Below the pieces are notes generated by a model. It saw nothing but the letters and a program-made list of their open reading frames with translations, searched no databases and was not told the DNA's origin. Made by a program: the position numbers and the translations under genes. Below are positions 29,181-64,000 of a stretch of 64,000 bases of DNA, in pieces (within the stretch, counting starts at the first letter, position 1; each line of letters begins with the position of its first letter). This DNA comes from Antechinus flavipes (Eukaryota), in contig NC_067401.1 of assembly GCF_016432865.1 (NCBI RefSeq), positions 152,272,001 to 152,336,000 of the forward strand, written 5' to 3'.

Positions 29181-30104
29181 TATTTTTATTTTTATTTTTA
29201 ATTTTTAATAGCTTTTTATTTACAAATATATGCATAGGTAATTTTTCAGCATTGACAGTTGCAAATACTTTTGTTCCAACCTTTTCCCTCCTTTCCTCCC
29301 TTCCCCTAGATGGCAGGTTGACCAATACATGTTAAATATGTTAAAGTATAAGTTAAATACAATATATGTACACATGTCCAAACAGTTATTTTGCTGTATA
29401 AAAAGAGTCAGACTTTGAAGTAGTGTACAATTAGCCTGTGAAGGAAATCAAAAATGCAGGTGGACAAAAATAGAGGGATTGGGAATTCTATGTAGTGGTT
29501 CATAGTCATCTCCCAGAGTTCTTTCGCTGGGTGTAGCTGGTTCAGTTCATTACTGCTCTATTGGAACTGATTTGCTTCATCTCATTGTTGAAGTGGGCCA
29601 CATTCATCAGAATTGGTCATCATATAGTATTGCTGTTGAAATAAATAATGATCTTCTGGTCCTGTTCATTTCACTCAGCATCAGTTCATGTAAATCTCTC
29701 TAGACCTTTCTGAAATCTTCCTGCTGGTCATTTCTTACCGAACAATAATATTCCATAATATTCATATACCACAATTTACCCAGCCATTCTCCAATTGATG
29801 GGCATCTACTAAGAGGGCTGCCACAAACATTCTTGCACATACAGGTCCTTTTCCCTTCTTTAAGATCTCTTTGGTATATAAGCCCAGTAGTATCACTGCT
29901 GGGTCAAAGGGTATACACAGTTTGATAGTTTTTTGAACATAGTTCCGAATTGTTCTCCAGAATGTTTGGATGCATTCACAAGTCCCCCAACAATGTATCA
30001 GTGTCCCAGTTTTTCCACATCCCCTCCAGCATTCCGCATTATCTTTCCCTGTCATTCTAGCCAATCTGACAGGTGTGTAGTGGTATCTCAGAGTTGTCTT
30101 AATT
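29181..30104 (-). mobile_element. 5'-truncated younger L1 with target-site duplication
   Basis: ORF 29762-30064 is the L1 ORF2 C-terminus (GTLIHCWG...IPFDPAVILLGLY...MFVAAL); T-rich tail at 29181; TSD tcatgctat[c/a]atttt at 29166-29180 and 30105-30119 (one mismatch). Confidence 0.9.
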
Positions 30105-30889
30105 TCATGCTATAATTTTTAAATGCAAACTCTTTAGCCCAAACAATGCCTAACTTCCCACATAGTTGACTGGAACTGAAAGTGGCAGCTCTGAGCACAA
30201 TCCATGGGATGACCCCTATAAGTTAATTATACCACCACTTTATGAAATAAGTGTGTTGGATTAGACTTTCTCTAAAGTCTCTAATAAACCTTCAACCAGG
30301 AATAGAATCATTTCCTATGAAAAGTATCCTCATTAATTCTGAAAACCTATCCTGATTGATTTTCTGCTTCTAAAGATTTCCTTGAGAAATAGGGGGAAAG
30401 CATGGAGTGAGGAGGAAATCTCAGAGAAATAAGATTGTAGAGACTTGATCTCAGAGAAATAGCCTAACATATTTGAAAAAACACCATGCTTGTTATCAAT
30501 GGACTTGGATTCAAATCCTACCACTAACACTTTACAGAATGTATGAGCTTGGAACATTTTTGAATCTTAATTTCTCCATCTGTAAAATAGATATTAATAT
30601 TTTTGCTGTCTGCCCCACTAGACTGATCTCTGTAATTATGTTATTGTTGTCACTAGAGATACCCAGGAATGGAAAAAGAGGACTTGGGATCAGCATCTCT
30701 GTGTGAAGAGGAGCAAGAATGAGCTGTCTTGGCTATGTGTGATGAAAATAAATCTCTGCATTATACACAACAGGTTTGATAATTTATTATTTTGATTTCT
30801 GTGGTCTATATCTCTTAGGCAATACTAAATGCTGATTGTGTTTGTCTCTTTACACAGTTAGTTTTTTTTTTTAATAGGTATGACTTTTA

Positions 30890-40030: not shown

Positions 40031-42879
40031 AACATTGCATGGAGCAATTACTTCCTACAAAGGAAGTCATCTTTTCCTTGCTACAGTATTAGACCTGAGG
40101 ATAATAGTAACCTATCCAGGTTAAAGAGGTTCCTCAATGTCTTGTTATCTGAACAGTTGTCTCATTTTAGGATGAGCTGGAAAGATCTCTGATCACAGGC
40201 CATTCTAGGCTTTCCTCTAGAAGATCTCTACAAATTATAGAAATAGATTACTCAGGTTCTCATCCTATTCCTGGAGGCACAATCAGCCAGCCAGATCTTC
40301 TTGTCCAGCTAGACTGATGCCAAAGGAGACTATGAGGAAGAGGCTGAGGTATAAAGTCTGGAAGTCTCTGAAAGTCCTGGGCAAGACAGAAGTTTTCCTC
40401 TGCCTAGTTTCTGAGAACTACCTAATATTTTTGTTCCTGGAAGGAGAAAATACCAACTTGAAGGAACTATTTGGAGACTGGGGAATTTTGCTATGTGTTT
40501 ATGACTGTTGGAGTTGATTAGTATCATGCCATACTTTACAGGCCCCTGTTTTTCCTTTGCCCACTCCTTCCTCCATAAAGGGAGGAGGTCTATGCCTAAA
40601 TGATGCAAAGGGAACTTAGAGCTGGAACAATATTGAGGGGAAATCTCTTTTGTTGCCAACAACAACAAAAAATACTACTTAGCAGGTTGGCTGAGAAGCA
40701 GCATCTGTCTTTAGTACAGGGTGTGCCTGCATTGTTCATCAGCTCTTATCATTTCTCACACAATGTATGAAGAAATTTCCTTGCTTTGGAAGTTCTGTTG
40801 AAAATAGTTCTGTGTTGTTTATTTCTTTCCCCCCTCATTTTAAAGATCACTATTTATTTTATGCCGTTTAATATCCCTTCCTCTACTTCACCCTCCATCT
40901 CCATCCCTACCCCTAAATACTTTCCTTGACATTCTTTTGACCAAAAAAGGGAGCTTGTGAACAAGGCCAAGGACTCTTTAAATCCAGTTACCAGAAGCTG
41001 TCAAAGTTAATACCTATGTATGTGAGCTTTGCAGCTCAGACCAACGGTGCTTGATTGAGTTCTCATCCCTTCCATTTAAGACCAGGGTTTTCTTTCCAAC
41101 AATCATGTGGAAAACTTGTTTGATTCTATACTATAGTTTTCTGTTTTCCTCTTAAAAAAAACCAAAATCTTGATCTAGAATTTTGACTTGTGAAATCTGC
41201 AGTTATGAAAATATAAGACTATCCTTTCAGCTTATTCTTACATAGCAACTTGTGCTGAAGGGGAAACTATTTGATGTCCCTTTAATGAATTTTGTTTGCT
41301 TTCCCCCCCACATCTTAGTCTTGCTGGTTAAATATTTGGTCAAATAGCCTAAGCATGAAATTAAATAGGGATCAAAACTGGCAATGCAGGTTCAGTCTGC
41401 TCCAGAGCCGATCTAAAAGCTTCAAACCCCTACTTCTGGCCAGCTTTTTGTGCTATGCCTTAATCATTCAGTCTGATTCTCCAGTAGTCTCTCATAATCT
41501 TTACACTTATTACCCCAGGCATCATGCTGCTTCCTCATTTGGCTAGCCAAGATGGTGCCTAGCTACTTGTGGACATATTGGCGTTCCCTATTGCTGTGTC
41601 ACTGGCACTTAGGAAATCTGAGTAGATTGCTCTAGGTCAAATGAAAAAAAAACTATAGGTACCAGGGGAATTCTAGGGAGTTTGCCTGACCAGCAGTCAG
41701 GTCTGTGACTCTACTCAGTATTTCCAATGCCTGTGTCTCTGTGGAATTTTTATATGATGGTTAACATTTCTCCCCAGGGACAGAAATTTTTCAGCCCCTT
41801 GCAAAATTAGCTGAAATGAATTTGAAATCTTTATCAGGGACATTAAAGCAGGGGACAATTATTCCATCATCCCAGATATTCAGATCATGGCTGTTTTTAG
41901 CAAGTTTACATCAACAGGACAAAACATCATTGGTCAGGTTCCTTCAATAACTATAAATTACATGCAGGATCTATTACATGGTTCTATCATCATTGTAAAT
42001 GAATTTCCAACAGGAACAAATGAGCATAACTAGCAAAACAATGAAAAACCAACAATAACAATCTCAATAGTTATTATCTAGCAGTTGCACAGTGCTTGAA
42101 ACATGTATAGCTTTTCATTTGGTTCTCACAGTAATCCTGGGAGTTAGATGCTATTATTAACATCTATATTTTCAAGTGCAGAAAGTAAAGAAGACAAGAG
42201 CTAAGTGATTTGCCCAGTGACACATATAAAGTATCTGAGACCAGATTTTAACTTATGCCTTCCTGACTCTAGCTCTGTCCCTCTATCTAGTGTGCTACCA
42301 CCTCCTGATAGGTCTGTGAAAGAACAAACATTGGTGTATATGTAAACAAGCAAATAGCCGCACAATGCATGACTCACAGAATCTAGTCATAATCCTAGCT
42401 ACAATCCAGTCATAATACTAGCACCAGGAAGATAAATATAAACAGCAGAATAATAAAGAGCAGTATTATATGTAACATGTAGTAATTAGTATGTACATCA
42501 GTAATATGAAGTTATAATAAAGCCATGTATTATGTGAATGACTTGAGTTTTGCTCTTTGGCTACATATGTAAGCATTTATCCAGTTTCATCTGTAACCTT
42601 CTATGTCAGCCTATCTGGGTTAGTTGGATCTAGTTGCTTTGTGACCTATTGATCTTTCTGGTTTTATACCTAGAAGGTAGATGGTATTGAATTCTGCTTG
42701 TATTCCTCTCTCATAATTTGTTAGCATCTGAGACTGTCCTATTAGTATTTTTATGTTTTGTATCACTGCAAATGAAAATTTAAGCAGAAAAGTGCTGTAT
42801 CTGAGTTCAATCCTCTCCTCTGGCCAAAGTAGGGTTTATTTAAGCCCAAGTTAAGCTTTTTGGGTTACAATGTCATTTT

Positions 42880-43020
42880 CACTTCCTGCTCTGACTCATT
42901 AGAAAGTTTAATTCTCCTGTGGATAATCAGTGGTTGCATAAAATTGTATTTACAAAATCCCCTTGTCAGAGGCTGTTGTATAAACAGACATGGTCACCAC
43001 TCCAGTGCAGGTTCTCATCA
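42880..43020 (-). mobile_element. Ty3/Gypsy integrase C-terminal end
   Basis: VYTTASDKG then LCNH*LSTGEL (42909-42941), cf. Gypsy VYKVKPE.G...LHRNHLLP.GEL. Confidence 0.55.
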
Positions 43021-43690
43021 TCTCATGTCTCAATTTTTGCCATAGCTTGCTGGTTGGTCTTCCTGCCTAAAGTTTCTTTCTTGCTTCAATCTCTTTTCTG
43101 TTCAGCTACTAAAGTCATTTTTCCTAAAGTGCAGATTTGATGAACTTATCCTCCTACTTAGTAACTCAAAGGATATTTTATTGTCTCCAGAATCAAATAT
43201 AAAATGCTCTACTTGGCATTCAAAGGCATTTATAATCTAGCTCCCTCCTACCTTTTTTAGTATTTTGTACCTTATTCCCCAACATATACTCTATGATCCA
43301 GTGACACTGGTCTCCTGGCTGTTTCCCACATTCAAGACACTCCATGTGTCTGCTCTGGGAATTTTCTCTGACTATCCCCTATCCTTAGAATGTTCTTTCT
43401 CTTTCACTTTGCCTACTGACCTTCCTGGCTTTCTTTAAGTTCCAACTAAAATCTTATCTTCTACACAAAATCTTCCCCAATCTCTCTTGATTCTAGTGCC
43501 TTTCCTCTGTTAAATATTTCTTATTTACCCCATATATAGATTGCTTTTTATAATTGTTTATATTGTCTCACCCATCAGATTGTAAGTTTTTTAAAGTCAG
43601 GGACTGTCTTTTGCTGCTTCTTCTTCTTTTTTTTTTTTTTGGTACCCTCAGTGCTTAGGACTGCACATACCTTTTAATAATTATTTATTG
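43020..43690 (+). mobile_element. L2 3' end inserted in the Gypsy integrase
   Basis: tgccatagcttgctggttggtcttcctgcc...ggcattcaaag...cttaggactgcac...aataattatttattg. Confidence 0.8.
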
Positions 43691-43817
43691 ATTAATTAAA
43701 GATATCTAATGTCTCACAGACTTATTTTGGAGTAGCTTTCCATCAGTCTGATAACTGATGGATTCATTGAATAGTGAGGTTTCTCACCTTTACTCAGTCT
43801 CTTTATTGAAGTTCTTG
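43690..43817 (-). mobile_element. Ty3/Gypsy integrase C-terminal (GPY/F-region) fragment
   Basis: HQLSD*WKATPK*VCETL (core 43728-43760), cf. HKLADRWKSTPY.VC.QL. Confidence 0.65.
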
Positions 43818-44008
43818 AAGGGGTCCTCAAACTACACCTTGGGCCAGATGCGGCAGCTGAGGATGTTTATCCCCCTCACCTAGGGCTATGGAGTTTCTTT
43901 ATTTAAAGGCGCACAAAACAAAGTTTTTGTTTTTACTATAGTCCGGCCCTCCTACAGGCTTGAGGGACAGTGAATTGTCCCTCTATTTAAAAAGTTTGAG
44001 GACCCCAA
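43818..44008. mobile_element. OC1 (OposCharlie1)-type non-autonomous hAT MITE
   Basis: perfect 14-bp TIR ggggtcctcaaact (43820-43833) / agtttgaggacccc (43993-44006); internal cactgtccctca...ggagggccggactatag resembles OC1/nhAT MITEs; TSD not clear. Confidence 0.8.
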
Positions 44009-44179
44009 TTATGACAATGAATCTGGGGAACATATATTTCTGTAACTAAGTAACTTAAGTAAATTTAGTAAGAAGTAACTCTTCTAACTAGTTGGTAGAT
44101 TTCTTTTATTCATCAAATGAGATAACATATGTAGCACAAATATTAAACCATTATATAAATTCTATTTTTGTTTACTATT

Positions 44180-44870
44180 TAATTTTTTCCTATTTCAGGT
44201 AAATTTTTAAAAAATATTTGCTTTCTAAAATTTTGAATTCCAAGTGTTCTTTCTTCCTCCCTGATTCCTCTTTGAGAAGGTAAACAATTTTATCCAGATT
44301 ATATATGTATAGTCGTATAAAACATATTTCCATATTAGTCATGTTGTGAAACTATTTGGCATTCAAAGATTTTTATAATCTAGCTCTCTCCTATCTTTTT
44401 TAGTATTCTTATACCTTATTCCCCAACATGTACTCTGTGATCCAGTGACACTGGCCTTCTGGCTGTTCCACATTTTTAGACATTCCATGTCTCAGCTCTG
44501 GGCATTTTTTCTGATTATCCCCTATCCTTAAAATATTCTTTCTCTTCCACTTTGATCACTGACCTCCTACCTTTAACAGATAAAAAAATTAAAAAATATA
44601 AATAAAAGTTTTTAAAAGTATGCTTCAATCTGTATTCAAACTCCATCAGTTCTTTCTCTCAAATACTCTCTCTTGAAGATAGCATTTTTTATCATAAAGC
44701 TTTTGGAATTTTCTTGAATCATTGTATCTCTGAACATGGCAAAGTCATTCATACTTGTTCATCATACAGTATTGCAAGACCCTGCGTGGATACTTACTTT
44801 ACTTTGTATCAGTTCATTTAAGTTTTTCCAGGATATGAATGTTATTGTTGCTGTGGTTAGTATTATTATT
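44180..44870 (-). mobile_element. Old L1 3' end carrying an inserted L2 copy (44356-44564)
   Basis: aacatatttccatattagtcatgttgtgaa...agtatgcttcaatctgtattcaaactccatcag. Confidence 0.6.
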
Positions 44871-46100
44871 CTTTATCTCAGCCAAGCCGTGTATTGGTTG
44901 GGCTGTTCACAACCTAAGACTACACAGGACAAATGAAGAAGTAATTGTTGCTCTCACCCAAGCACCAGCAACTATGAATAACTTTATTCTATAAAACCTA
45001 AAGAGTCAATCCATTCTAATATATTTGTATTGGAAATTCTACATGATGATTCTGCTGAAATTTTTCTTCATATCGCAGTGTTCCTAAAAGATGTGATTGA
45101 AATACTCGTTATTCTTTTTTGACTTTTTTTCTCCACACTTTCTTATGCTAGGATTTTTTTTTTTTTGAGTAACTTGTTCTTAAAGTTTTTGCCTTAGTCA
45201 AAAATGCCTTTAAAAAACCTTAGTCACTTCTGACAATGGAGGTTCTAAGTTCAAGGATCATTGGGAATGCCATTGCAGTTAAAACCACAATGTAAGGGCA
45301 AACACAATTTTATTAAAGTGATAGAAAAGAAAACAGAGGCCCCAGTAACTTCTCTGAAGAATTTATCGTATGGAATGAGAAGCTTCCACTATTATAAGTT
45401 TGATGAGATCAGAAAAGCACTTTTTATATGAAATTGAATTATTTCTCTGGGGACTAGCTCAGTAATTGGATCAGTAATTGGGTGTCACCCAATCATTTAA
45501 AACTCGGACATTACACAACATATAAGGACAAATAAGGAAATTCCGGTGGCTAGGTTCAGGCAGAGGTCACTACATGTCTGAAAGTGAGACCTTTTGTTCA
45601 ACCTGTCTTTGTGTAAATAAACTCTTGTGCAAAATTCCTTGTCAGCTATAGCAACTGTGGAAGCTTTTCAGGTTTCTGGTTGGGTTTGCCTGTGCACGAA
45701 ATGGTCAGTCGCCATAGAGCTATAACTTATTTTTGCTTACTTGCCAGAGATAAAGAGCCAATGCAAACCACTTACATGATACTTATTAATATACTTTATT
45801 ATTTTTCCTATGAAAACTTCTTGATGGCTTCTCTTATTCTGTATCAATATAATCCATTTCTTGCATTTTCCTGGGTTTTTCCTTGATCCATATATCTGAA
45901 GTCATTATACAGTGCTTTTCTGGTGCCATCTGATTTCCTGGTGCCGTGGATGTGGTCAAGAACAGTTTGGTATAGTACTTGTTGGCCTGTCTCCAACTTT
46001 TTACATTGTTTCACCAGTAAAATGCTTTCTAGTGAATGAAAGTCGAGTGTTTTAGCTTAAGCAACTAAGGCAAAAAAGTTCAGTTGGAGCAATATAACAG
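44870..46100 (-). mobile_element. Ty3/Gypsy integrase zinc-finger and DDE core, decayed
   Basis: VLYQTV; RKALYNDFRYMDQGKTQENARNGLY*YRI; VCIGSLSL; ATDHF...KASTVA; D*GKNFKNKLL (D 45197-45199); EYFNH (E 45105-45107); LLGTLRYEEK...HVE. Confidence 0.75.
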
Positions 46101-46149
46101 GGCTGACATGATACTGAAATGTTGTTTATTTGGAAGTTCTGGAAATTTC

Positions 46150-47450
46150 AGAGATGTTCATAAATTGGGATAGCTGAACAAAATATGATTGTGATGAAAT
46201 ACTACTGTGCTATAATAAATGATGAGCTCAGTGATCCTAGAAAAACGTGAAAAGACTTGCATGAATTTATGAAGAGTGAAATGAGCCGAACCATGTTAAC
46301 GCTGAATGCAGTAACAGCAATGTTTTTTTTTTTTTAAGTTTTTATTTTTAAAACACATGCTTAGATAGTTTTCAACATTGACCTCTGCAAAATCTTGGGT
46401 TCCAAATTTTTTTCTCCCTCCCTTCTCCTCAACCTTCCCTTAGACAGCAAGTAATCCAATATTTGTTAAATATGTGCAATTCTTATATATATATATATTA
46501 TCACAACTATCATGCTGCACAAGAAAAATCATATCAAAAAGGGGAAAGAAAACAAAAAGCAAGCAAACAACAACAAAAAAAGATGAAAAAACTATTTTGT
46601 GATCTATACTCAATCCCCACAGTCCTCTCTCTGGATGCAGATGGCTCTCTCCGTAATCCAATATATGTTAAATATGTGTAATTCTATACATATTTCTACA
46701 TTTATTGTGCTGCACAAGAAAAATCAGATCAAAAAAGGGGGAAAATGAGAAAGAACACAAAATGCAAGCAAATAATGACAAAAAAAGTGAAAATACTATG
46801 ATCTACACTCAGTCCCCACAGTTCTCTCTCTAGTTGCAGATAGCTCTCTTCATCCCAAGTCGATTGAAATTGGCCTGAATCATCTCATTGTTGAAAAAGG
46901 CCATGTCCATCATAATTGAGTATAATCTTAGTTTTGCTGTATATAATGTTCTCTTGGTTCTACTCACTTCACTTAGCATCAATTCATGTAAGTCTTTCCA
47001 GGCCTTTCCAAAATCATCCTACAAAAATATGATTTTAAGAATGACTTTGAATGAATATGATTTTAATTATTATAAATACTTAAGTGAATTATAAAGGATA
47101 TGTAAAGAAAGATGTTGTCTATATCCAGAGAAAGAAGTGATAAATAAAAGTATGTATTAAATCATTTTACATATATATGTATGTCTGTTCACTATATATA
47201 TATATTATACATGCATGCCTGTTTGTGTCTAATGGTAGCCATCCCTATAATAGCAAGGGATGGGGGAAAGAGTAGGAAAGGAAAAAGAAAGAAATTTACA
47301 TGGTAATTTGTTGTATATTTGAAAGCAATAGTAAGTGTACATAGCAGAGTTGCAGTTTCATGTGCAATCATCTTTTTTATTGTACTATTACGGAAATGCT
47401 TGTTTTATTCCATAGATTAAAAATAAAATCAATTTAAAAGAAAAGAAAAA
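46150..47450 (+). mobile_element. L1 3' end with a nested antisense L1 3' end (about 46330-47010)
   Basis: sense L1 (gatgaaatactactgtgctata...agtgaaatgagc) resumes near 47020 after an antisense dasyurid-type 3' end. Confidence 0.65.
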
Positions 47451-47459
47451 AATTCTTAG

Positions 47460-48302
47460 CTGCTCATTAATTTGACTTTTATCCAACTTTCTTGAATATT
47501 ACATATAGTCTTCACTACTTTCAATATAACCATCATTTCAGGATTGCACAGTTTTCAAGCCAGAGCATCTGCATCCATGTCAGTCTTTCCTGCCTGTTAG
47601 CACATGCTTGGCTGGTATTGCTCCTCATTTCTGGCAAGTAGCATCTAATTTGGCACTGGCTAGAAGATAGGTCTGTAGATTACTGTCAGTCCATACTTGG
47701 AATTTTGCTCTTTCCATAGTTTTTGAATTTTTTCATATCAAAATCAGTAACTTCAGCTTGTGTGTATAAGAATGTATCTAAATCTCATCACTAAGTTCTC
47801 TGCCAGTGAATGCCATTAGTTTGGATGACTATCACTCACTTGGTATCAAATTGCTTCAGAACACACCAGGGTGGCATCTGTGTTTGGGATATACTCCATA
47901 AGGCAGCACTGGTGCATGTGTGTGGCATGAGACTGAGTTTTTGACTTCATAATTTTAAAGCAATTTGAACATTCTGTCTTTTTGTTTCTGTGTCTCCTCA
48001 GTTGGGTATTCTAGAGTGAATGGATTAATAATGATAGCATAATTCTTAGAAAATTTGTGATGGTAAATCCTAGAAAAGTTCTAGATTCTGAAGATTCTGT
48101 GGATATGGCCATTTCAGGAGCACTCCTGATGCCTCTGTTATTGTTCATGTCATTTTAATATGCTATTTGACCCATACTTTCCCAGTCAAATCAATAAACA
48201 TTTTTTAAGCATCTGTGATATGCCAAGTAGTGTGCTAAGTGCTTGATAGAGATTTTGCAAAATTGACACTTGTCATTTGAAAGTTTTAGACTTTTTCTAG
48301 AT
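47460..48302 (-). mobile_element. Ty3/Gypsy RT C-terminus and RNase H, decayed
   Basis: KSLKLSNDKCQFCKISIKHL; LKWPYPQNLQ..RTFLGF; KFSKNYAIIINPFTLEYP; HAPVLPY; NTDAT; THKLKLL; AKFQVWTDSNLQTYLLASAKLDAT (47637-47708); GKTDMDADAL; short L2 tail at about 48185-48245. Confidence 0.85.
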
Positions 48303-48510
48303 CTCAGCTTCTTAAACTATGGTTTGTGATCCCATATTGGGTATCATAACTTAATGTGAAGATTGCAAAATTATGATTTATTATCATAATATAATAATAT
48401 ATTATAATGTTTGATTTGCATACCTATTTTATATGCCTACATACCCAGTGTCAGGTAAAAATTTCTTGAGCCAAAAGGGGACATGAGTGGAAAAAATTTA
48501 AGAAACTCTG
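48303..48510. mobile_element. hAT-Charlie MITE inserted in Gypsy RT
   Basis: imperfect TIRs ctcagcttcttaaact / aatttaagaaactctg; 8-bp flanks ttctagat / ctctcgat fit the Charlie NTCTAGAN target. Confidence 0.7.
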
Positions 48511-48640
48511 CTCTCGATGATCTAACATATACCAATTTTTCTTCATGTTCTAGTATCTTTCCAAAGACAATGATATTATCTATATATACCACTACTTCTG
48601 GGTAATTCATGTTACTGAATAATTTCTTTATCATTTATAT
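48511..48640 (-). mobile_element. Ty3/Gypsy RT catalytic region
   Basis: NMNYPEVVVYIDNIIVFGKILEHEEKL, cf. DMN..EVLVYLDDIIVFG.TLEEHEERL (YxDD decayed to YIDN). Confidence 0.85.
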
Positions 48641-49395
48641 TATCCAGAAAACTAATGATGTGAAATAAACACTAAATATATAAAATCATACCACAATTGC
48701 ATTATGAGGCAGAGCTACGAAAATCAGTATTTGGCAAATAAACAAATTATGAGATGTGAGAATCAGTTAGCATGTGTTAAAATCATAGGAAAGCATTGTT
48801 TGCATCTATTTTTATATTCAAGCAATTAGTTTATAAACAATAAAATCCCAAGAAATAAAAATTATTTACATATGTTCATTATCTGACCAGTCCTTTCTTA
48901 ATGTAACAATTAACATAATTGAAACAGGTATTTTGCCTTTATAACAACTGTTTTATGAATGAAATAGATAATCCTAAGAGAAGAGAACAACTATATGAGA
49001 TATCCAAATAAAAACAAAACAGACTAAAAACTGAAAACTGAATTCTTTCTTTGAAAAAAAAATTAGAACTGGAAAAATTTTTGATGAATAAACATGAACA
49101 TTTTGCTTATGCATGTATGTATATGTATAGGAATATACACATATGGGCACAGATAACATGTATGTATGTATATATATACACATATATCTGTGTATATTTC
49201 TTTTGAAAAATAAAAGATAAAAGGAAAATTCTTCCAAAAATTTCAATAAAAACTGAACTAAAATTCTGTTCAAAATGGAAAAGAAAAGAAAAAGACTAGT
49301 ATAAAGAGTGAGAGAATCCCAGTGGCTTCAGTAACATTAGAACTGAGTTGAACAATATACTACCGATTCAAAAACTAGGAAATAACATATATATA

Positions 49396-49410
49396 GCCAC
49401 CAGGGGGAGC
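49396..49410 (+). promoter_or_regulatory. Candidate CTCF site
   Basis: GCCACCAGGGGGAGC, one mismatch to the core CCACCAGGGGGCGC, in non-repeat sequence. Confidence 0.45.
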
Positions 49411-49793
49411 TTGTGAGTAAGGCCAGTGGATTTCTAGCTCCAGGTACGGGAACCTGTACTGAAGAATTTTCCAATTAAGAACAATGATACCTGCACAAAG
49501 TACTTACCTTGAACTAATTTTTTTTTCTTTCAAGTATATTTGCAGGAAATTTGCTAAGCTCTACAATGAGGCTTCCCAGCTCACATTCTCCACCCTCTTT
49601 ACCACCAAAGGAAAGGAAAATGTCTAATATTTGAGTTGGGATTTGTGAAATTTGCATTCCTTCTCTCTAGTAAGTTCACCCCAAATGCCCAGCTTGCTCT
49701 GAGGGAAAAATAGTTCCTGCTCTTCTCTTTCCTCATTACCCTATCATCAGTCTTGCTCCTGGACAATTTAATAACCACAGCAAACATCTTGGT

Positions 49794-50010
49794 NNNNNNN
49801 NNNNNNNNNNNNNNNNNNNNNNNNNNNNNNNNNNNNNNNNNNNNNNNNNNNNNNNNNNNNNNNNNNNNNNNNNNNNNNNNNNNNNNNNNNNNNNNNNNNN
49901 NNNNNNNNNNNNNNNNNNNNNNNNNNNNNNNNNNNNNNNNNNNNNNNNNNNNNNNNNNNNNNNNNNNNNNNNNNNNNNNNNNNNNNNNNNNNNNNNNNNN
50001 NNNNNNNNNN
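49794..50010. other. Assembly gap (217 N)
   Basis: run of N. Confidence 1.
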
Positions 50011-50594
50011 GTAACCTAAGCATCAAACTAAATGAAGGAAAGCAAACTTTAGTGCTGTCTAAAACAGTTAGAATGAGATGATGACAAAACAGGAAATAAA
50101 GTAATTGACTGGCAAATAGTAAAACTTGGGTTTCCCCTTGGAGAGTGGAAGGAAAAGGGACACTGTCTCCTTCTTCTAACTTGTGCTTGGGTTAACAAGA
50201 CGAGCTCAGCCTGGTTCATAGATCCTGATTTCATTGCCTCCAAAGATTCCTCCCTGCTCCTGTCATGTTGTTCCATACTTGAATGACCAGATCTACTCCT
50301 TCAGCCCAGTGCCACATGGCCTTTCTATCTACAACTGACCATTTTTTTTCTAGGCAAGATAACATTCCACTGGCTCTGTTGGAGTTCCTAGCTTAATGTT
50401 ATAGGCACTTTGGAATTTGAAGTGGTTTGGTCCAGGTCCAGGTCCAGGTTTGCTATAGGAGCCCCAGGAGATTTCTGACTAATCTGACTGACCAGGAAGC
50501 ATCAGTTGTCTCCCACAAAAGACACTCATGGCTTTATAGTAGGAATAAAGCAGAACTCCAGTTTATACTCTTCCTACACCTTCATTGTCTTCAG

Positions 50595-50660
50595 CGTATA
50601 CTCTCTCCCCTGGGAAAGCGCATCCCTGATCTTCAGTTGAAGAATTATAAGTGGCTTAGG
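50595..50660 (+). other. Candidate 66-nt internal exon
   Basis: pyrimidine tract ctcttcctacaccttcattgtcttcAG, then AGG|GTAAGT donor; only phase 0 is open (RILSPLGKRIPDLQLKNYKWLR). Confidence 0.3.
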
Positions 50661-51812
50661 GTAAGTGACCCAAAGGACCTTTCCCTAATAATTTCTGCCA
50701 CTTGCCCCAGGAATAAGGACAAGAACTAGTTAGAGAAGATAGGAGTTGGATTTAGGGCAAGATAGGTCAAGATCTGGGAGTAATTACAGTTGTTGTCTAT
50801 TTGAAAATACTATTTCTCTGTACTCCTAAAGGTGCCCTGGAGTGCAGCTTTTGAGAGTGGTGCATTATAAATCATTTGTCTCTGGCTGTGGGTTGAAGTC
50901 TCCCATCCCCCACATTACTACCACCACAGTAGGCCACATTGAGAATCTGGACTAGAAAGACTTTATTATTCAGCTAGGGAAGCCTCTTTCCCTAATAAAA
51001 CTGAGGTGAGTGCTTAGGAAAACATGGACCTGCCAGTCCATACACTTTGGGCTGAGGGGAACTTCCTTTCCAATTGATTCCAGTTTGTTCACCTTCACTT
51101 TTTCTCTCAAACCATTTTGTGGGGCCAAGTATATTTTGCCATCATAAACCACCAATTAAAAGCCCTTTGGAGGAGGGAAAGGGTGGAGATGAGGGAGTCA
51201 GTAAGCAAACAGGAGGAGGAGGAGGAAGAGATTAGAATGAAGGAAAGGCATGAAGTCCTATCAAAGAAAAATAAATTTTGCAGAAGGGAAGCAAGAGGTC
51301 CCCTCCCCCTTTATGGGTAAATCATCATGTTTTATGGTTGTGATGCAAGTAAAAGGCAGGAGATCAGACTGTCTTTAATGGCTAGGGTCATTTATCTTAT
51401 TTATGTTTGTCTGAAGCTTAACATATTCCATCAAAGAGCAGCTTGGATATGGGGACCTCTGTAGGCTTTTTTGTATGTTTTTGTTAACATCATCATGATC
51501 ATTTTCAAGATGTGTTCTGGAACTTTATTCTTGAAAAGATTTTGAGTAGAGAAAATTCTAGTTAGAACTTTCAAGAGCTCTGAATTCTATTCTTTGCTTT
51601 GAACAAGTTATTTTAATTCATTAAGCATTTATTAAGCCCTTTGTGATGTGCAAGGTTATCAAAGATATGAGCACAGAACTTCATAGAGCATGGTCCAAGT
51701 GTGTCAACATACCAGGCACACTCATGAGTACAAGATGTAAAAGAGCTCAGTTCTGGTTCTTAAGAAACTTGTAGACTGAATTCTTCTATAACTTTTTTCA
51801 TGAGTTTATACA

Positions 51813-51948
51813 GGGGTAGTTCCTTAGCATTGTGGATAAAGTACCAGTCCTGGAATTAGGAAGACCTGAGTTCAAATCCAGCCCCAGATACTATTTGTAT
51901 GTCCCTGGGCACTTAACCCTATTGCCTCAAAAAAAAAAAAAAAAAAAA
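51813..51948 (+). mobile_element. Short tRNA-derived marsupial SINE (WSINE/SINE-1-like) with poly-A
   Basis: ggggtag...gtggataaagtaccagtcctggaattaggaagacctgagttcaaatcc...ttgcctc(A)20. Confidence 0.8.
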
Positions 51949-53339
51949 GCTCATATACCATTGTTCATATGATACCTTTTTCTTATTTTTATCCCCAGCT
52001 CCAGTTTCCAGAAATGAATTCCCTGTCTCATTCCTTAAAAATATTTTGAATCTACTTTTATATTATATATGCTTGTTTCCCCTATCAGAATGAAAAATCC
52101 TTGAGCAGAACTATTTCATATTTGTCTTTGTATTCCCATCATGGAAGCTCCTTGAAGGCAGGTGCCATCTTTGTTATTGTTGTGTGTAGTTTTCTTATTG
52201 TTGTTGTTGTTTTATATTTGTATCCCTAGCGCTTAGTACAGTGTAAGTGCTTAATAAAGGCTTATTGCCTACCTGCCATTTTATTTGTAAATAGTGTCCA
52301 GCTCATTTGTTGCTGTCTAGTTGTTTCAGTCATATCTTCTGGAATGGATTTCCTTCTCTAGTTCATTTTACAGATGAGGAAACTGAGGTAAACAGGGTTA
52401 AATGACACAGGGTCACACAATTAATAATTTTCTGAGAGCAAATTTGAGCTCAGAAAGTCTTCTTGACTCCAGGCCCAAGACCTAATTGCCTCAATTTAGG
52501 ATATTAAGTTTCTGACAAATAAAAGACCAGGAGTCAGAATTTCTCTGTAAAGTGCTGAATATGAAAGAAGGAAGATAGGAAGTATGGTTGGGTAGTGTAG
52601 AAAAAGTTGTAGAGTCAGAAGATTTTGTTTTGGTATTAGTTTATATGATTTTAGGCAAGTCATTTAATTCCTCATTTAAAAAAAGGTAGAATTAGATTTG
52701 TTATTCTTTAGTTGTTTCAGTCATGTTCAACTCTCTGTGATCCCATTTAGGGTTTCCTTGGCATAGATACCAGAATGGTTTATAATTTACTTCTCTAGCT
52801 TAGTTGACAGATGAGGAAATTGAGGCAAATAGGGCCAAATGACTTGATCAGGATAACACAGCTAGGAAATTTGGGATTTGGCTAGATCAATTTTAAAGTT
52901 CCTTCCAGTTCTAGGTCCTATGACTGTGTACTCATGGGAGCAGAATGTCTTTCTTCTGTGGGTTTATGGTACTCCATTTATGAAATTCACTCAGAATATG
53001 GTGTTTTTGAAGGGAGAGCATTGATTCTTTGACATTAACTTGTGCAATTCACTTTAATCTCTTTGGCCCTCAATTTTTCTTATTTGAAAAATGAGGCTGA
53101 AGTAGATGCTTTTCAAAGTTTCTTCCAGCTCTGATATTTTATCATTTTAGAATATCTTCTCACTTTTTCTCTCCTTCCCTCTTTGATCTTTTGCCACATA
53201 GAATGTGGAGTGGAGCTGGCAGAGGATAGTTGTCTTAAAAACTTTTTTTTTTTTTGGTCAAATGGACTGCAATTGTTTAAACAAATTAACCTACTCAGCC
53301 CCTGGCTTTTATTCTCCTTTTTCTGAGAAGGTGACTTTT

Positions 53340-53735
53340 CTTCGGTTCCTTGATCTGAGCGCGATGGAGTGAGAAGGGTGGAGCTCCACAGTTGTGGTTG
53401 AAGGCTGAGGTTTTTATATGTTTCACCGGAGAGAAGAGAATTCATGGTTCACTTCTAATGATAGGGCCCTTGCAGGTAGGAGCATGCTCGAGCCCTCCAG
53501 CCTGCAGACGTGTGGTTAGCCAAACGATGTTCCTGGAATTCCCAAACCGGATATGAAATTGCTAGCAGGATATAGAGAATGAAGAACAGAAGTGCCCAAA
53601 GTGCTTTACATAATGAAAAGCTCTCTCCTTTCTGGTTGTCTGATTGGGCCTGGAATTGCTCTAGAGTCTAACAGCCAGTCTGAAGGCTGTAGCATTAGCA
53701 AAATATTGTATATGTCTTGAAGTGGGGCCTGCCGC
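53340..53735. promoter_or_regulatory. CpG-enriched regulatory-like element
   Basis: about 9 CpGs in about 400 bp of non-repeat DNA; CAG|GTAGGA at 53475/53476. Confidence 0.4.
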
Positions 53736-55244
53736 TTTTTCTCACTTTGGTTTATTTACATCCAGTGTCTAAGGCTTCCATCTGTGAGTGTGTTGTGCTA
53801 TAAGGCATTCTAGACTAGAAGTGGCAATAGTGCTTTTGGCTTAAATGGAAAAAACCAAAATTAACAAAAAATCAATTGAACAACCAAATGGTGGGTAAAA
53901 AAGAACTTAATCCAGACTGGTTGTATCTATTTGCTAATGGTTGGGTTTGAGGGGAAATCCATATTTGGGGTGGTGGGAGTCAAAGAGGAAGATAGTGATA
54001 CTGAAGGTATGTCTGAGAATTCATTTGGACAGTCTTCCTGTATTAGGGGGAAAAGGGGAGAAGCAAGTCCTTGGGCAGCACTGGGATATAAGAACCAAAA
54101 AAGTAACCTGCTAAAAAACAATAACAACAACAACAAAATAAAACAAAAAGAAAAGAGTTCTGGTTTATATATGTAAAAGGATCCCAAACTCCCTCTACTT
54201 ACACAGCCAACTCAGACTATGTTACCTCTGCCCATACATGACTTATTTCCCCTTTCCCCCCTTTCCACCTGCTTTTTATTCCTCTTTATTTTTTGACAGT
54301 ATTTTTTTTAAAAGAATTAACAAGTTTTTGTTTTCTCTTTTTTCTACTCCTCTTTCCATTAAAAAAGAAAAAAGAAAAGCAGTCAAGAAAAGCTAATTCC
54401 TCTTTTTATGTGCTTATTTTTGTCTTTTTTTTAAAATTAAAACTTTTTATTTTCAAAACATATGTATGGATAATTTTTCAACATTAACCCTTGCAAATCT
54501 TTATGTTCTAAATTTCCTTCCCCTTGCTTCCCCTCCTCCCCTAGATGGCAAGTAATCCAATATGTCAAACATGTTAAAAATGTATATTAAATCCAATATA
54601 TGTAAACATATTTATATAACTAGTTCCTTTTTTTTTTTTTTTGGCCCTTAAAAAACATATATGTCTCATTCTATATCCTGAGTCTCTCACCAACCTATCA
54701 AATAGGGTGGGGGAGTAGCATGCTTTCTCATTGATCCTTTGGAGTTATGATTGTTTGTATCGGGTGCTTAAGCCTTTTAAAGTTATTTGTCTTTACAATT
54801 TTGTTGTTCTAGCTTTGAAAGCAGCGTGTTGAACTCTGATTCACAATAACGAGTTCCAAAGAATTTGTGATGAAACATGTTATTCAACTCCAGATAGAAA
54901 GCTGGACTTAGAATGCAGATTGAAGCATATTTTCTTTTTTTTTTTTCTAGGAACATGGCTGATATAGAGGTTTATTTGACATCTCGATACATTTGTAATG
55001 AGTTTTATTTTTATCTTTGCAAAGAGTGAGGGAGAAGGTTGAGAGGAAATTTGAAAATGAAAATAAAATTGACTTAAAATTTTTTTTTGTTGTTATATAA
55101 AATGTTTTCTCCTGATTATGTTCACTTTATCCTATATCGGTTTAAACATTCCTTCCCAAATATCTCAGGTGCCTCATCTGCTTTTTGATGCCTTAAAGAG
55201 GCACATATTCCTGTTTTTCAGTCTCTTTTGTCTTTTCTTCTCCA

Positions 55245-55489
55245 TTCCTTCTCCCTGTCTTTCTCTCCTCCTTCTTTCTTTCTCTCTTACCTTCTTTCTC
55301 TCCCTCTCTCACTCTTCTTCTCCTTCTCTCTCCATCTGTCTCTCTTTCCCCTCTCCTTTCTTCCTCTCTTCTCTCTCTCTCTCCCTCCCCTCTCTCTGTC
55401 TTTCCCCTCTCCCTTTCCTTCTTTCCCTCTTCCCCAGTCTCTCCTTCCCTCCATCCCTCCCTTTCTTCTTTTACCTCTTTCTCCCTCAT

Positions 55490-55571
<82 letters not shown>

Positions 55572-55574
55572 TCT
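55245..55574. repeat. CT-rich tract with (TC)n at 55494-55574
   Basis: polypyrimidine mirror repeat. Confidence 0.97.
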
Positions 55575-56004
55575 AATTCCTATTGTGATCATTCCACTTC
55601 TAGACCTTATCTTCCCTTAAGCTCTGGCATTCACAGTTCTCTGTAATTTTATTTAGGCTTATCTCATGTTTTTCTTCTTCATAGAATCTATATTCCACTC
55701 TAGTTAGACTATTTCTTCTCTTTTTGTCTTACCACTTTTTTTATTCCATCTTCTGTGTTTGAAATAGACTTATTCGATAAACTCTATTGAAATCTCTTCC
55801 TTTTTTAAAGTTCAAGTAGAGACGTCATTTCCTTCAGAAAATCTTTCTTCCTTGTCCCTCCACTTTCTCTAGCTTTTCATAGCCCTTTGCCTAGACCCTC
55901 TGTTTGTACTGATTTCTCACCTTGGCTTAGATCATATTTATGTGCTTCTTCTGTCCTTCCAGTAAGCAATTTGAGATGAAGCCCTGTGTTGAACTTAATA
56001 TATG

Positions 56005-56345
56005 CTGTTGTTCAGTCATTGATTTGTATCCAACTCTTTGTGACTCCATTTTTTATGAGGTTTTTTTGGCCAAAGATACAGTAGTGATTTGCCATTTCCT
56101 TTCCTAGCTCATTTTATAGATGAGGAACTGAGGCAACTTTTTGTGACCCTCATTTGGGGTTTTCTTGGAAGAGATGCTGGAGTAATTTGACATTTCATTC
56201 TCCATTGTACATTTGAGGAAACTGAGGCAAACAGGGTTAAGTGACTTGCCCAGGTTCACACAGCTAGTAAGTGTCTGAGGCCAGATTTGAACTTAGGAAG
56301 AACAGATCCCATTTTATGCACTATGGACCGCCTAGCTGCTCCCTG
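56005..56345 (-). mobile_element. MAR1-type SINE with duplicated tail segment
   Basis: ttgtgac..cattt...gatgaggaa block occurs twice. Confidence 0.75.
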
Positions 56346-57412
56346 TATATATACATATATGGGTGTGTGTGTGTATAAAAATATATCATATATATATATA
56401 GTACATATATATGCACACAGAAACATGCATACCTACACATATAAAATTTGACTGCTGGTATTATTAATGCCATTTTATACCTGAAGAAACTGAAGTTTAA
56501 AGAAATGAAAGCATTTAGCTGTGATCACATAGCTAGTTGCTGTTGAAATGCAGAATCTGAACATAGGCCTTAGACCTTGACATCCAGAGTTCTTTCTATT
56601 GTGTCAAAGGCTCTGGGGGAAAACGACCACAACAATAAAGCAAAATAAAGGACAAATTTGTGGAGTGCTATCCTCCCTTGACCTTCTTTTAAGTCTTCCT
56701 CTATTCCTGCTGCTTTCTGTTTATTTTTAGGACTGAGGTACAATGGTGTTTTTTTTCACTTTACATTCCCGAGTGATAATATTTTTTAAAAAAAGAAATC
56801 AATGTCATAGCTCATTTAAATAGGTTCTCTAATATTTTAAAATATTTGATTATAATCTGTAATTGCAGAGACACCAGAGATACAAAAACATAAATCTAAA
56901 ATATTAGGATGCTACAGTAGATTTAATAATAAAATTTTAATAATCAAACACTTTAAAAATATCTGTAGACTGCTTTTCAGGTTGTGACTTTAAATTTAGT
57001 AGAAGAATATTTGCAAAATAAAGAAAAGATAGGAGCCTTCAAGCAAAGAGAAGATTCTACAAAATTAAATTATAAGTTCCTTTGAATATACAGACCTCAT
57101 GAATAATCATACTATTAGGGAGGAGAGAAAAAAGTAGGAATTTGTCTAAATAAATCAGTCCTCACACCTCCTTTTCCCTCACTTCTTTCTATTTTTTCTT
57201 TTTCCTCCCACTAGGGAAGGAACAGGGAGGTGGATAGGAAAGGTCATAAGATCACACATCTAGAGTGGGAAGGGCTGAATGACTCAATGGCCATCCAGGC
57301 CAATTTCCTCATTTGTAAAATGAGGAATTTGAATTCCAGACAAGATAAACAATTTATCCAAAGTCACAGTTAACACCAGAAATGGGATTTGTACCTACAT
57401 CCTGTGATTCAG

Positions 57413-58192
57413 TAATCTCAGATATGCAGATAATACCATTCGGTTGGGAGAAAGTGAAGAGGAATTAAGAAATCTCTTGATGAGGGTGAAAGAATATAAA
57501 AGCTGGCTTGAAGCTTAATATTAAGGGGAAAAAAAAATCAAAATCATGGCAACTGGTCCCATTACTTCCTGGCAAGTAGAGGGAGAAGAAATGGAAATAG
57601 TGCCAGATTTTATATTCTTGGGCTCAAAGATCACTGCAGATGGTGACTGCAGCTGTGTAATTAAAAGATGCTTGCTCTTCAGAAGGAAAGCAATGGCAAA
57701 TCTAGAGAGGTGTGCTAAAAAGCATCACTACTGATAAAGGTCCATATAATCAAAGCTATGGTTTTTCTAGGAGCAATGTAGGATTGTGAAAATTATAGCA
57801 TTAAAAAAAAAAAAAAACGAGGGCTGCAGAATTGATGCTTTCCAATTGTGGTACTGGAGAAGAATTTCAAGAATCCCGTAGACAATAAGGAGATCAAATT
57901 ATTCGGTATTTAAATACATTAATTCAGACTATTCACTGGAATGTTATATACTGAAGCTGAAGGTCAATACTTTGACCACATAATGAGAATGGGACTCTGG
58001 AAAAGACCTGGATGTTGGGAAGGATTGAAGGCAACAGAACAAGGAGATGGCCAAGGATGAGATGATTAGAGATAATCATGAAAACCACAAACATGAACTT
58101 GGACAGACTTTGACACATCGTGGAGAATAGAAGGACCTGGGTATGTTATGGTCCATGGGATCACAAAGAGTTGGACATGACTGAAAGACCTG
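57413..58192 (+). mobile_element. BovB-type RTE LINE, 3' 0.8 kb
   Basis: LRYADNT (RT YADD decayed) at about 57418; MATGPITSWQVEGEEMEIVPDFIFLGSKITADGDCS...; tail ccatgggatcacaaagagttggacatgactgaa. Confidence 0.88.
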
Positions 58193-60013
58193 GAAAGCTG
58201 AATTGTATAACCTGGATTAGGAAACAGTGGGCTAAAGAAAATGAAATTTTTCAGCTCAGCCTTCAATATTGTAGTGTTTAGTTAAATATTTAACAATATA
58301 CATTAATGGGCCTGGGAGCAGAAAAATAATTGAAATAGTGAAGAAAGCCAATACTTAGATCATTCTAAAGCAATATGATGACCTGAATTTGGTAGAAAGA
58401 GAAAGAAAGCTTTACAGCCAGGCTTTTTGATAATCTGTTGAATCCCATGGCCCTCTTTCTCAAAAAGTGGGCTTTTAGAAAGTATAAAATAATTTTAAAA
58501 AGTGGCATTACAGAGGAAAACAATTGAAATAAAGTTGAAATGAATTTATCAAAAATATTAACAACAATGATAATTTTGCAGGTTCTAGTCTATTTCTGTT
58601 AATAGAGTTAGTGCCACTTGAAACAAAATAAGATTCCAGAAAAGTGGGCATAGTAAGGACTAAATACTGGCAGGGCTTAGAATAGGGATCAGAAGGGAGT
58701 CTGAGTAGTTAAATGAAGTCAAAAGTCCTTGGGATGGCTCCAGCAGAGAGGTTCATGTGTTCATCATCCCAAAACCTAGAACTGATGACCATAGGCATTG
58801 TCTTTCATGTTACTAGAGCACTCAGTCTTTGCTCCTAAGAGAGCAGCCCACTTCAGGTTCAACATTTCAGTTTTAGAGAGCTCTCTTTAGAGAGAAACAA
58901 TGGCTTGTTTCTAGGATTGACTCCTGGCTTCTTGGATTGGGATAGAATCTGGAAGGAGCAAGCTTCCATAGAAGGCACCTGGACTCTGAGTTTTCTTGGT
59001 TCTCTTGCATTTGGAGGAGGGAGGGCTGTTTAGGGGCATCCCAATTCTGAGTCCCAACATTATTTGCAAGGTTTAAGTAGATTGATGGCATTAGAAGTTT
59101 TGAATTTTTGTATTTATATATGTAGGAAAACAGTTCTTTATAAACTATATTTCCATATCAAATGATTTCCAGAGACCATTTATTCATTACCCTCATTCCA
59201 TAAATCATATTCCTCTAGTCTTTTCAAAACTTTTAAAAAATCATTGCCTTCAGGAAGCCTCCTTGGATTAAAAAATTTGGATCACTTTGTACACCATGTA
59301 TACCACATAAATTTTCATTTGAAATGTATGAAAGCTGCTATCAGGTAATAGGTTTAGAAATATAACACCAACTTCCTTGAAGGGGATTAGTTCTTTTATT
59401 GGCAATATCTCTATAATTCTGATAGCTGTAACAAAGTAAATGAATGGTGGCATCTGCAAGTGTATATACACATCCAGAGGACAAATTTTGCTTAAGCACA
59501 GAGAACTGAGCAGGACTGTCACAAAGGACCCCAGTCATTTATGCTGGTAAAAACAGAAGGTTTATAGTTGGGAAGGACATTGGTGACAATCTAGTGTAAA
59601 CGTATCAAATCAGTTCAACAAATGCTGATTAAATATTTTTGATGTACACGGTGTGATGTTCCCTTTTAAAAATAAAAAGAGGCAATAAAATCTTTGCCCT
59701 CAAAGAACTTACATTCTATTGGAAACAAAGCACTCTAACATTCATCTAATGCTTTTAAGAGTTCTGAAATTCTTCACTCATTTTAGAGGAGGAAATCATG
59801 GTTCAGAATGTTTAAGTGAGGTTTAAGTTACAAAAATAGGATTAGAGTAAATATGGAACCTCAGAATTGGAGGGAACCTCAAAGTTTATCCAATCTAGTT
59901 ACTTCTTGGGGCAATTAGGTGGATTGATGATGCAGTAGGTAGAGTACTAGACCTGGGAGTCAAGATGACCTGGTTTTAAATCCAGCTTCAGAAACCTATT
60001 ATACTATACTACC

Positions 60014-60122
60014 TTTTCCTTCTTTCCTTCCTTCCTTCCTTCCTTTCTTCCTTCCTTCCTTCTTTCCTTCCTCCCTCCCTCCGCTTCCTTTCTCCCCTTC
60101 CTCCCTCCCCTTCCTTCCTTCC
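60014..60122. repeat. (TTCC)n-rich tract
   Basis: imperfect TTCC/TCCC repeats. Confidence 0.92.
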
Positions 60123-60199
60123 ATTTATTGAGCATCTGTAATGTGTAATGTACCTTTTTAGATACTCATGGTATAAATGTAAAAGGGAAAAAATAAATC

Positions 60200-60960
60200 C
60201 CTGATATTGATTCCATTCTTTTCACATCCTACTCTTAATACTAAAGATTTCATTTAATCAATAGCCAATATCAATAGAGGGATGTGACTTTGTCATATTT
60301 TTTTCTGTTATTCTTCTCAAGATTTTGTATTGCTCTTCCATCCCCAACAGTCGTATCCTATAAAAAAGATGTATAGTCAAATGAAAAAAATCCTCAATAT
60401 ATTAGCCATGTCTGAAGATGTGTGCCTTATTCCCCACTATAGTCTACCACTTTTTTGCTGAGAAATGAAATTGATCTTTCTAAATTAGAACTCTAAAACT
60501 AAGTCAGTCCTTGCATTGATCAAAAGTTCAGATGCCTTTCAGTATTGTTTTCCTTACTTTACATTATGTAGCTCATTTCCCTGGTTTTACTTTGTATCAA
60601 TAATACAAGTCTTCTCAGGTTTCTCTGAATTTTTTCTTCTTTGGTTTTGCCATATTCTCATTCATTCTTTCATTTGTTTGATCATTCAGCAATTGATGGG
60701 GGTCCACTTTGTATCCAGTTTTTTGTTTTTGTTTTTGTTTTTCTTGTTTTTTTGCTACCACAAAAAGACTGTCATGAATATTTTGGTATATGTGAAACTA
60801 TTTCCTCTGTCTTCAGTCTCTTTGTTGGACATTCCTCGTAGTTAGATTGCAGAATACGTACAGTATAGTATTTTTTCCAGTATTATTTTATATACTTTTC
60901 CAGAATAATTATACAATTTGTATCTTGTGATTAATCCCCCCAACTTCCCACATGTTTACA
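60200..60960 (-). mobile_element. Old L1 3' end
   Basis: taatacaagtcttctcagg...aattgatgggggtccactttg...atgaatattttggta. Confidence 0.55.
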
Positions 60961-61287
60961 AGGGTTTTGAAGAGAGATGTGGCCAAATTTCACCAAAAAA
61001 AATGGCCAAAAAGATGTAGCAAGAATCAAAAGTCAGGCATCTGGATGGTATGCAAAAGGGGCTCTTCTACCTAAATAATTAAGGTTGATCCATGTTTCTA
61101 AGTAACATCTCTTTGATTAATTGTCTGAGTTTCACCTGAAAATGAAAATGGACTTCACTTTCACCCAATTGTGGGCAAATGCATAAGGAATTCTGTATTG
61201 ACCAAGTAGACAGCAACATGGCTTTTGGGCAGAGGCTGTCTTTCAGTCACAGCTCAGCTGTGTTTCAGTTTATTTTATCCCGTGCAG

Positions 61288-61367
61288 GATACGGAACAAT
61301 GGTCACATTTCTTATTTCTTGGCTGCTGCTTTCTGGCACGCTTGACGGGATTAAGGGCTGAATGCAG
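61288..61367 (+). other. Candidate 80-nt exon in a CpG-retaining island
   Basis: tttattttatcccgtgcAG acceptor and CAG|GTGGGT donor; about 7 CpGs within 61280-61490. Confidence 0.35.
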
Positions 61368-61785
61368 GTGGGTTTCCTTCCCCTCCCCTCCCTGTCACCT
61401 GGACATTGCCATGGCGATAATCCTCCCTGAAACAAAAATAAAGAGGAGAACCGGTTGGACAGAAAGTGTGGCTGAGAAATCTTCGAAGGAGGTAGAGAGG
61501 TGAGGGAATGAGACAGAGAAGCACTGAAGGGAGGGCCTTGGAGAGAGAGAAATGACCAAGGTGAGGGGTGAGTTGTAGGGTGGGCACTTCCATAATTTTG
61601 AAATCTGAACAGATGAAATTTTAGGAAAGAGCATTAGTTTTTAACAATTACCTCTTTATTCATGGATTGGATAGGTTCTTGGTTTGGGTTTTTGTTTTTG
61701 TCTTTGGCAGGCAAAAATCCTGTTTAGTTCTTCTCTGCTTTGGATCCATAGTCCATATGCATAAAGGATAGAATGATTTTTATGG

Positions 61786-63754: not shown

Positions 63755-64000
63755 TTCTTTGATTCCAGAGGTATGGAGAAGAAGAATTATGTTTGAAAAC
63801 TCAGAGAATCATAAAACTTTGGATTTGGAAGGAACCGTAGGGATCATCTAATCCAGTTTATTCTTTTCTTCCTCAAGTTCCTTCTCTATCATATGTCTTA
63901 CAAGATATCTTGAATTTTTCTACCCTCCACAAATCCCTTTCCAGAACTGTTCTCTTGCCCCTTTTCCCGTCTATATGTTAAAATTCTTTCCAGTCTTTGA

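Follow-up and report, generated by a model that had tools for sequence, protein, structure and literature searches.

The 64,000-nucleotide stretch of Antechinus flavipes contig NC_067401.1 analysed here (positions 152,272,001 to 152,336,000 of the forward strand, hereafter the window) carries on its minus strand what is very probably the genuine but dead 3' half of a Ty3/Gypsy retrotransposon of the PNMA lineage. Running from a 5' edge at 48,635 to the end of a polypurine tract at 41,767, it comprises about 2.9 kb of element sequence that at least seven later insertions have stretched over 6.9 kb, and it retains remains of reverse transcriptase (RT), ribonuclease H (RNase H) and integrase in pol order. 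An initial annotation of this sequence recognized the pol remains and missed the most useful link they offer, which is that the family carries a PNMA-type gag.

Pol remains and the limits of the element

The initial annotation had described peptide remnants in strict order on the minus strand, and that order holds: all 16 motifs searched for lie on this strand in the expected order from 48,592 to 42,909. A turtle Gypsy Gag-Pol protein (P0007, from Caretta) aligns to the region by tblastn in seven colinear pieces, covering residues 819-1587 and spanning 48,634 to 43,707, and the best match of a Gypsy protein to the region reaches 3e-14. A frameshift-aware alignment of the RT-RNase H portion to turtle Pol scores 286, against 35-51 for 14 control stretches. 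The integrase pieces are weaker in the same kind of alignment (82, 55 and 43), each exceeding all 60 random controls. The piece containing LCNH..LSTGEL is not significant when taken alone, with 6 of 60 controls equally high, and has DNA-level backing from one of eight other copies (z 7.7); the second part of the integrase core aligns at the DNA level with z >4 in 10 of 15 copies, its portion below 44,975 in 4 of 11. DNA alignments with other copies confirm the window pieces and identify the gaps between them as insertions, as the initial annotation had proposed.

The remains are heavily decayed, the best RT-RNase H piece carrying 7 frameshifts and 4 stops over 199 aligned codons. No element-derived open reading frame (ORF) of 110 codons is present in the window copy, and none of the 29 window ORFs of at least 110 codons is a convincing host ORF. 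Word-indexed protein searches with the window pieces returned no match. A full protein scan using the 82-residue RNase H piece as query gave four proteins, two with Gypsy-type RNase H, the stronger match belonging to the turtle Caretta (E 1.8e-5); the other two (P0001 and P0003) were rejected as spurious repeats. An apparent upstream protease and a set of downstream extensions were dropped, the alignment settings behind them being too permissive (controls 175-241).

Read along the minus strand, the element begins with a first piece of the C-terminal half of RT at 48,511-48,635 (reference residues ~819-863), which marks the 5' edge of survival and is placed by protein alignments, and continues with the end of RT at 48,246-48,302 (residues ~864-884), placed by protein and DNA alignments. 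The connection, RNase H and the start of the RNase H-integrase linker follow at 47,441-48,184 (residues ~885-1170), and the linker end, integrase zinc-binding region and core start at 45,631-46,100 (residues ~1216-1391; protein and DNA alignments). The second part of the integrase core occupies 44,786-45,204 (residues ~1401-1545, weak below 44,975), and a C-terminal integrase piece 43,700-43,820 (residues ~1550-1590; protein and DNA alignments). The end of pol and the beginning of the 3' non-coding region, at 42,345-42,997, and the remainder of that region, at 41,767-42,089, are defined by DNA matches to other copies. The initial annotation had confined the fossil to 42,880-48,640; pol does lie there, but the element runs on for ~1.1 kb past the 3' limit.

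At the 5' end, four longer copies cease to match the window at the DNA level at 48,628-48,635, giving the window copy an abrupt edge. Upstream, nothing above background was found for gag, protease or the first half of RT in 48,635-64,000 and the next 20 kb (~35 kb in all); a lone DNA match there (z 12) is to sequence inserted in locus L074, and we interpret it as a repeat common to both loci. Because gag and protease are present in other copies, we read their absence here as truncation. At the 3' end, 42,754-42,307 matches 8 of 40 other copies at 56-64%, in most of them directly after integrase. The non-coding region closes in a conserved block that ends in the polypurine tract (41,775-41,767) followed by TG. 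This block is present in 5 of the 40 pol loci (doubtfully in one of them, L064) and in four loci chosen for it; a set of 12 more loci gave no convincing instance. The TG recurs in six of the eight other block-bearing loci, leaving out the doubtful one. From this position just past the purine tract, a 3' long terminal repeat (LTR) likely starts at the TG at 41,766; we assign it 41,540-41,766 on the minus strand, with an arbitrary lower coordinate. In four loci (L094, L095, L096 and L100) the block and purine tract lead into mutually unrelated sequence, a pattern that could reflect several families of LTR or the presence of non-autonomous elements.

A family with PNMA-type gag

A turtle RNase H query gave 143 matches among 150 scored, out of 406 candidates, so that the genome has at least this many matches, a few of which are overlapping rows or belong to another Gypsy lineage. 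The window copy ranks 72nd among them. We fetched 40 copies, the top 39 and one more, and several are far more complete than the window copy, covering more than 800 residues or, in L057, residues 300-1598. All 40 are broken: over 16,932 codons they accumulate 485 stops (~2.9 per 100 codons) and 530 frameshifts (~3.1 per 100). The description of the window element as a long internal copy thus overstates it. A 5'-truncated 3' half survives, its RNase H falls in the middle of a ranking of at least 143 matches, many copies cover more, and in itself the element is an ordinary, routine fossil. The share of window words in sequencing runs, a measure of word content without alignment, was 0.32-0.80 (eight runs, five organism labels) and 0.06-0.15 in RNA-type runs.

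Copies of the family differ in structure. Eight of them (L057, L060, L062, L064, L076, L081, L084 and L089) skip reference residues ~510-627 and align from ~622-629, so the spacer between protease and RT seems, by alignment, to be shorter in marsupial copies than in turtle elements. In L143, L145 and L148, protease or RT is joined straight to RNase H or integrase; the junctions to integrase suggest internal deletions, and these three loci are possibly internally deleted, non-autonomous forms. The genome also holds other RNase H-bearing sequences. Two pairs of RNase H fossils (L022 with L035, and L027 with L051) resemble neither the window family nor each other, which suggests at least two more Gypsy lineages. 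Locus L048 (G000:C2:515,475,765-515,476,088) has an RNase H-like domain in a 988-codon open frame that is not like that of an endogenous retrovirus (ERV), and is probably a domesticated gene, such as, we presume, NYNRIN. Four further loci (L030, L032, L037 and L041) contain ERV-type pol frames that stay open for 807-1,324 codons and are young endogenous retroviruses.

The nearest sampled proteins to the fossils are those of living turtle Gypsy elements (P0007 of Caretta and P0011 of Malaclemys), at ~50% identity over RT-RNase H; these have intact frames, whereas marsupial copies lack, or fail to align over, residues ~510-627. Living relatives carry PNMA gag, RT, RNase H and integrase in one frame with no chromodomain match, and the best solved-structure relatives of P0007 are Ty3 Pol (E 1e-95) and the PNMA2 capsid (E 2e-38). 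The sushi-ichi or chromovirus lineage, from which PEG10 and RTL1 derive, is likewise Ty3/Gypsy and has left therian fossils and domesticated genes, but differs in gag and in clade. We built RT-RNase H trees, restricted to Gypsy rows, from the window copy, 23 others that retain at least 190 residues, and 28 living proteins. The living proteins were drawn from a set of 120, out of 5,302 longer relatives that a turtle query matched. With a turtle anchor, all 24 fossils form one star-like clade sister to the turtle elements (Shimodaira-Hasegawa-like approximate likelihood ratio support, SH-aLRT, 100 and 99), and a fish anchor with turtles left out of the profile gives the same topology (97 and 99). 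RT-RNase H of the fossils groups with living elements that have PNMA gag, in trees built without Gypsy12_DR itself. Tree position and structure matches agree with the colinearity to P0007 in placing the fossil among non-chromoviral vertebrate Ty3/Gypsy elements, where the initial annotation had put it.

The link to PNMA is also visible in the Antechinus genome. PNMA-domain matches number 41 among 137 scored, and at four loci (L084, L085, L110 and L141) a PNMA gag and window-family pol share the same locus and strand. The top match, at L101, is an intact PNMA-type gene (L101:1048-2433, corresponding to G000:C1:494,628,212-494,629,600, plus strand) whose open frame runs for 462 codons from the first ATG, antisense beside laminin-alpha exons (LAMA3 or LAMA5). 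The marsupial gene PNMA-MS1 has 456-458 residues and lies at LAMA3 (PMC3789554, PMC3670739); because the frame and position of L101 fit this description, L101 is likely, judged on sequence and location, the PNMA-MS1 orthologue. A gag tree combined L101 with 19 living proteins and with 16 of the 31 fossils tried. There L101 falls in a group with five fossil gags (97/91), itself part of a marsupial clade (89/93) whose sister is turtle. The window family is likely the parent family of PNMA-MS1.

Nested insertions and age of the family

The insertions that divide the fossil belong to several repeat classes, whose family labels (Charlie, OC1, L1, L2 and MIR) are ones we take to apply. Nearest the 5' edge, the two RT pieces are separated by a 208-bp miniature inverted-repeat transposable element (MITE) of presumed hAT/Charlie type at 48,303-48,510, with imperfect inverted ends, 8-bp flanks that agree at 6 of 8 positions, and three matches in the fetched loci. 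The initial annotation had the RT frame resuming once this MITE is removed: both RT blocks do lie in one genomic frame, but the codons adjoining the MITE fit the reference poorly. A short, high-copy, L2-tail-like repeat at 48,185-48,245 (edges approximate), into which 36 of 40 genome DNA matches fall, is an addition to the earlier anatomy. DNA alignments place L1-like 3' ends at 46,101-47,440, one of them (~46,322-47,022) inside another of opposite orientation; a two-copy 199-bp tandem repeat lies within an L1-like 3' end at 46,451-46,849. The integrase core is interrupted at 45,205-45,638 by an unclassified, LTR-like repeat of ~430 bp from a separate family, with 33 other genome matches at 65-87%, most of which cover its first 230 bases only. 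L1-like fragments fill 44,009-44,785 together with a 223-bp stretch at 44,352-44,574. This stretch and 43,209-43,432 are both L2-like and are 86% identical over 226 bases, far above other L2-like pairs, which makes a local duplication within the fossil likely on sequence grounds. A young, OC1-like hAT MITE with inverted ends at 43,818-44,008 has a median identity of 91% to four other copies. Towards the 3' end lie an L2-like fragment of ~700 bp at 42,998-43,699, recognized by DNA alignments, and a MIR-like short interspersed element at 42,090-42,344 with 74 matches in the fetched loci. Elsewhere in the window, a 115-codon minus-strand frame at 29,762-30,109 resembles what we take to be the end of L1 ORF2.

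These neighbours provide a scale for the age of the family, since divergence from the window to other copies was computed by one method for all repeat classes. The Gypsy pieces diverge by 0.51-0.52 for three long pieces and 0.36 for the short RT piece, compared with 0.48 for L2-like, 0.41 for MIR-like and 0.38-0.45 for L1-like repeats; the 430-bp repeat stands at 0.31 and the young MITE at 0.10. A codon-anchored estimate of 0.70 over 763 pairs is probably inflated by misalignment; the window copy's own codon-anchored divergence from the others is 0.675. By these comparisons the Gypsy copies appear to be about as old as L2 repeats. With divergence halved, and assuming that neutral sites change at 2-2.5 substitutions per site per billion years, their age is roughly 105-175 million years, a range that spans the marsupial-placental split and so fits insertion on either side of it.

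Alternative readings and significance

We propose a family with a PNMA-type gag whose copies likely arrived in a single old wave, roughly at the age of L2 repeats. It would have moved by the ordinary LTR cycle, in which its RNA was packaged in a Gag capsid and reverse transcribed, the purine tract priming the plus strand, before a DDE integrase inserted the DNA copy. The window copy would have lost its 5' half after insertion and has presumably been decaying neutrally ever since, and one gag of the family may have been retained as PNMA-MS1. A number of observations weigh against this account. Pfam searches of whole frames and pieces of the region returned no RT, RNase H or integrase match. Since gag is missing from the window copy, it is tied to PNMA only through its family, and the fossil gags are on average slightly nearer to turtle (38%) than to L101 (35%). 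Both pol trees are quick trees without bootstrap, built on a living set with no crocodilian or squamate members; under the fish anchor only 17 of the 24 fossils are nearer to turtle than to the anchor, and the fossil clade could in part be a grouping of long branches, which the fossils are. Past the purine tract, sequences are unrelated between copies with the exception of one pair, that of the window had no other genome match in DNA searches that are insensitive for the 3' region and LTR, and across 52 loci of 10 kb no LTR pair was recognized and no LTR delimited.

The silence of Pfam, and the fact that some motifs are only 4-5 residues long, might be explained if the region were ERV pol or a chance assembly of motifs. 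The Gypsy tblastn matches and the frameshift-aware score, far above its controls, refute this reading, as does the comparison with ERVs, in which the best match of four long ERV-type ORFs of this genome to the region has E 0.018, where Gypsy proteins reach 3e-14; we give it practically no credence. We also consider it very improbable that the locus is functional or exapted, whether as coding or regulatory sequence. Nothing positive points that way beyond the likely domestication of a family member's gag elsewhere, and the frameshifts and stops in the RT-RNase H piece, the average divergence of the copy (0.675 against 0.70) and its lack of any element ORF of 110 codons all argue against it.

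Where the family came from is less clear-cut. Horizontal transfer from a reptile lineage into an early marsupial or therian would account for the greater resemblance of the fossils to living turtle Pol (50%) than to each other (37%), for the short distance between the fossil and turtle nodes (0.17-0.23 substitutions per site), for the 68-70% identity that some integrase pieces reach, and for the star-like internal tree; yet the turtle-to-fish distance is ~0.4-0.5 in the same trees, so that, on the divergence dates we assume, vertical inheritance since the amniote ancestor at a slow rate would produce a value close to 0.17-0.23, and we think transfer unlikely. We are evenly divided on whether the copies amount to no more than marsupial representatives of MamGyp-int (or MamGypsy2), a therian family already curated, in which case they would predate the split and nothing would be undescribed, a reading that is compatible with a dead Gypsy 3' half of the PNMA lineage and removes only its novelty. 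MamGyp-int, its LTRs and X1-X4_LR are listed as human Gypsy traces (PMC5753468); it is a mammalian Gypsy fossil family in Repbase with seven LTR types (MamGypLTR1a-d, 2-2c) on one internal region, and is annotated as the source of the PNMA2 gag (10.1101/2023.02.09.527862). Described from the human genome, it is likened here to the window family by description only. The varied sequences past a shared purine tract fit one internal region with many LTRs, and the age range reaches the split, but marsupial insertions have been argued to be younger than that, with no shared orthologues found (PMC3789554).

The lineage of the window family is in any case already known, as PNMA- or Gypsy12_DR-related, from gag remnants in wallaby and opossum and from eutherian MamGyp-int in Repbase. 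Iwasaki 2013 (PMC3789554) reported matches to the Gypsy12_DR gag in wallaby (20) and opossum (14), mostly called remnants and of the same lineage as the window family. That search concerned gag only, and the available portion of the paper has nothing on pol, the 3' end, pol copy number or a reptile sister group. Kokosar and Kordis 2013 (PMC3670739) described mammalian Metaviridae remains as "rare", likewise fragmented fossils, with active relatives surviving in reptiles including turtles; at least 143 RNase H matches and several copies of more than 800 residues exceed what this term implies. The available portions of five other papers (PMC10516033, PMC4408412, PMC9004415, PMC4350176 and PMC5857283) contain no description of the window family, and within a literature scope that left out database entries and subscription papers we found no paper on pol-bearing PNMA-lineage copies in marsupials.

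A stronger claim, which we put forward tentatively and consider somewhat doubtful as a whole, is that marsupials keep hundreds of fossils of an uncurated, marsupial-specific Gypsy family, inserted after the split, sister to turtle elements and the direct parent of PNMA-MS1. If true, this family would represent the final wave of autonomous Metaviridae in marsupials, and would settle whether the domestication of PNMA genes happened once in therians or separately in each lineage. The question is disputed, as insertion after the marsupial-placental split and independent PNMA origins have been argued on one side (PMC3789554) and a single therian event on the other (PMC3670739), and at least 100 datable pol-bearing copies, with PNMA-MS1 among their gags, permit a direct test. 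Because Pfam and plain DNA searches miss the window pieces, marsupial repeat annotation may also miss Gypsy internal sequence. The interest of the window fossil thus lies, modestly, in its family rather than its locus, that family being the likely parent of a marsupial gene.

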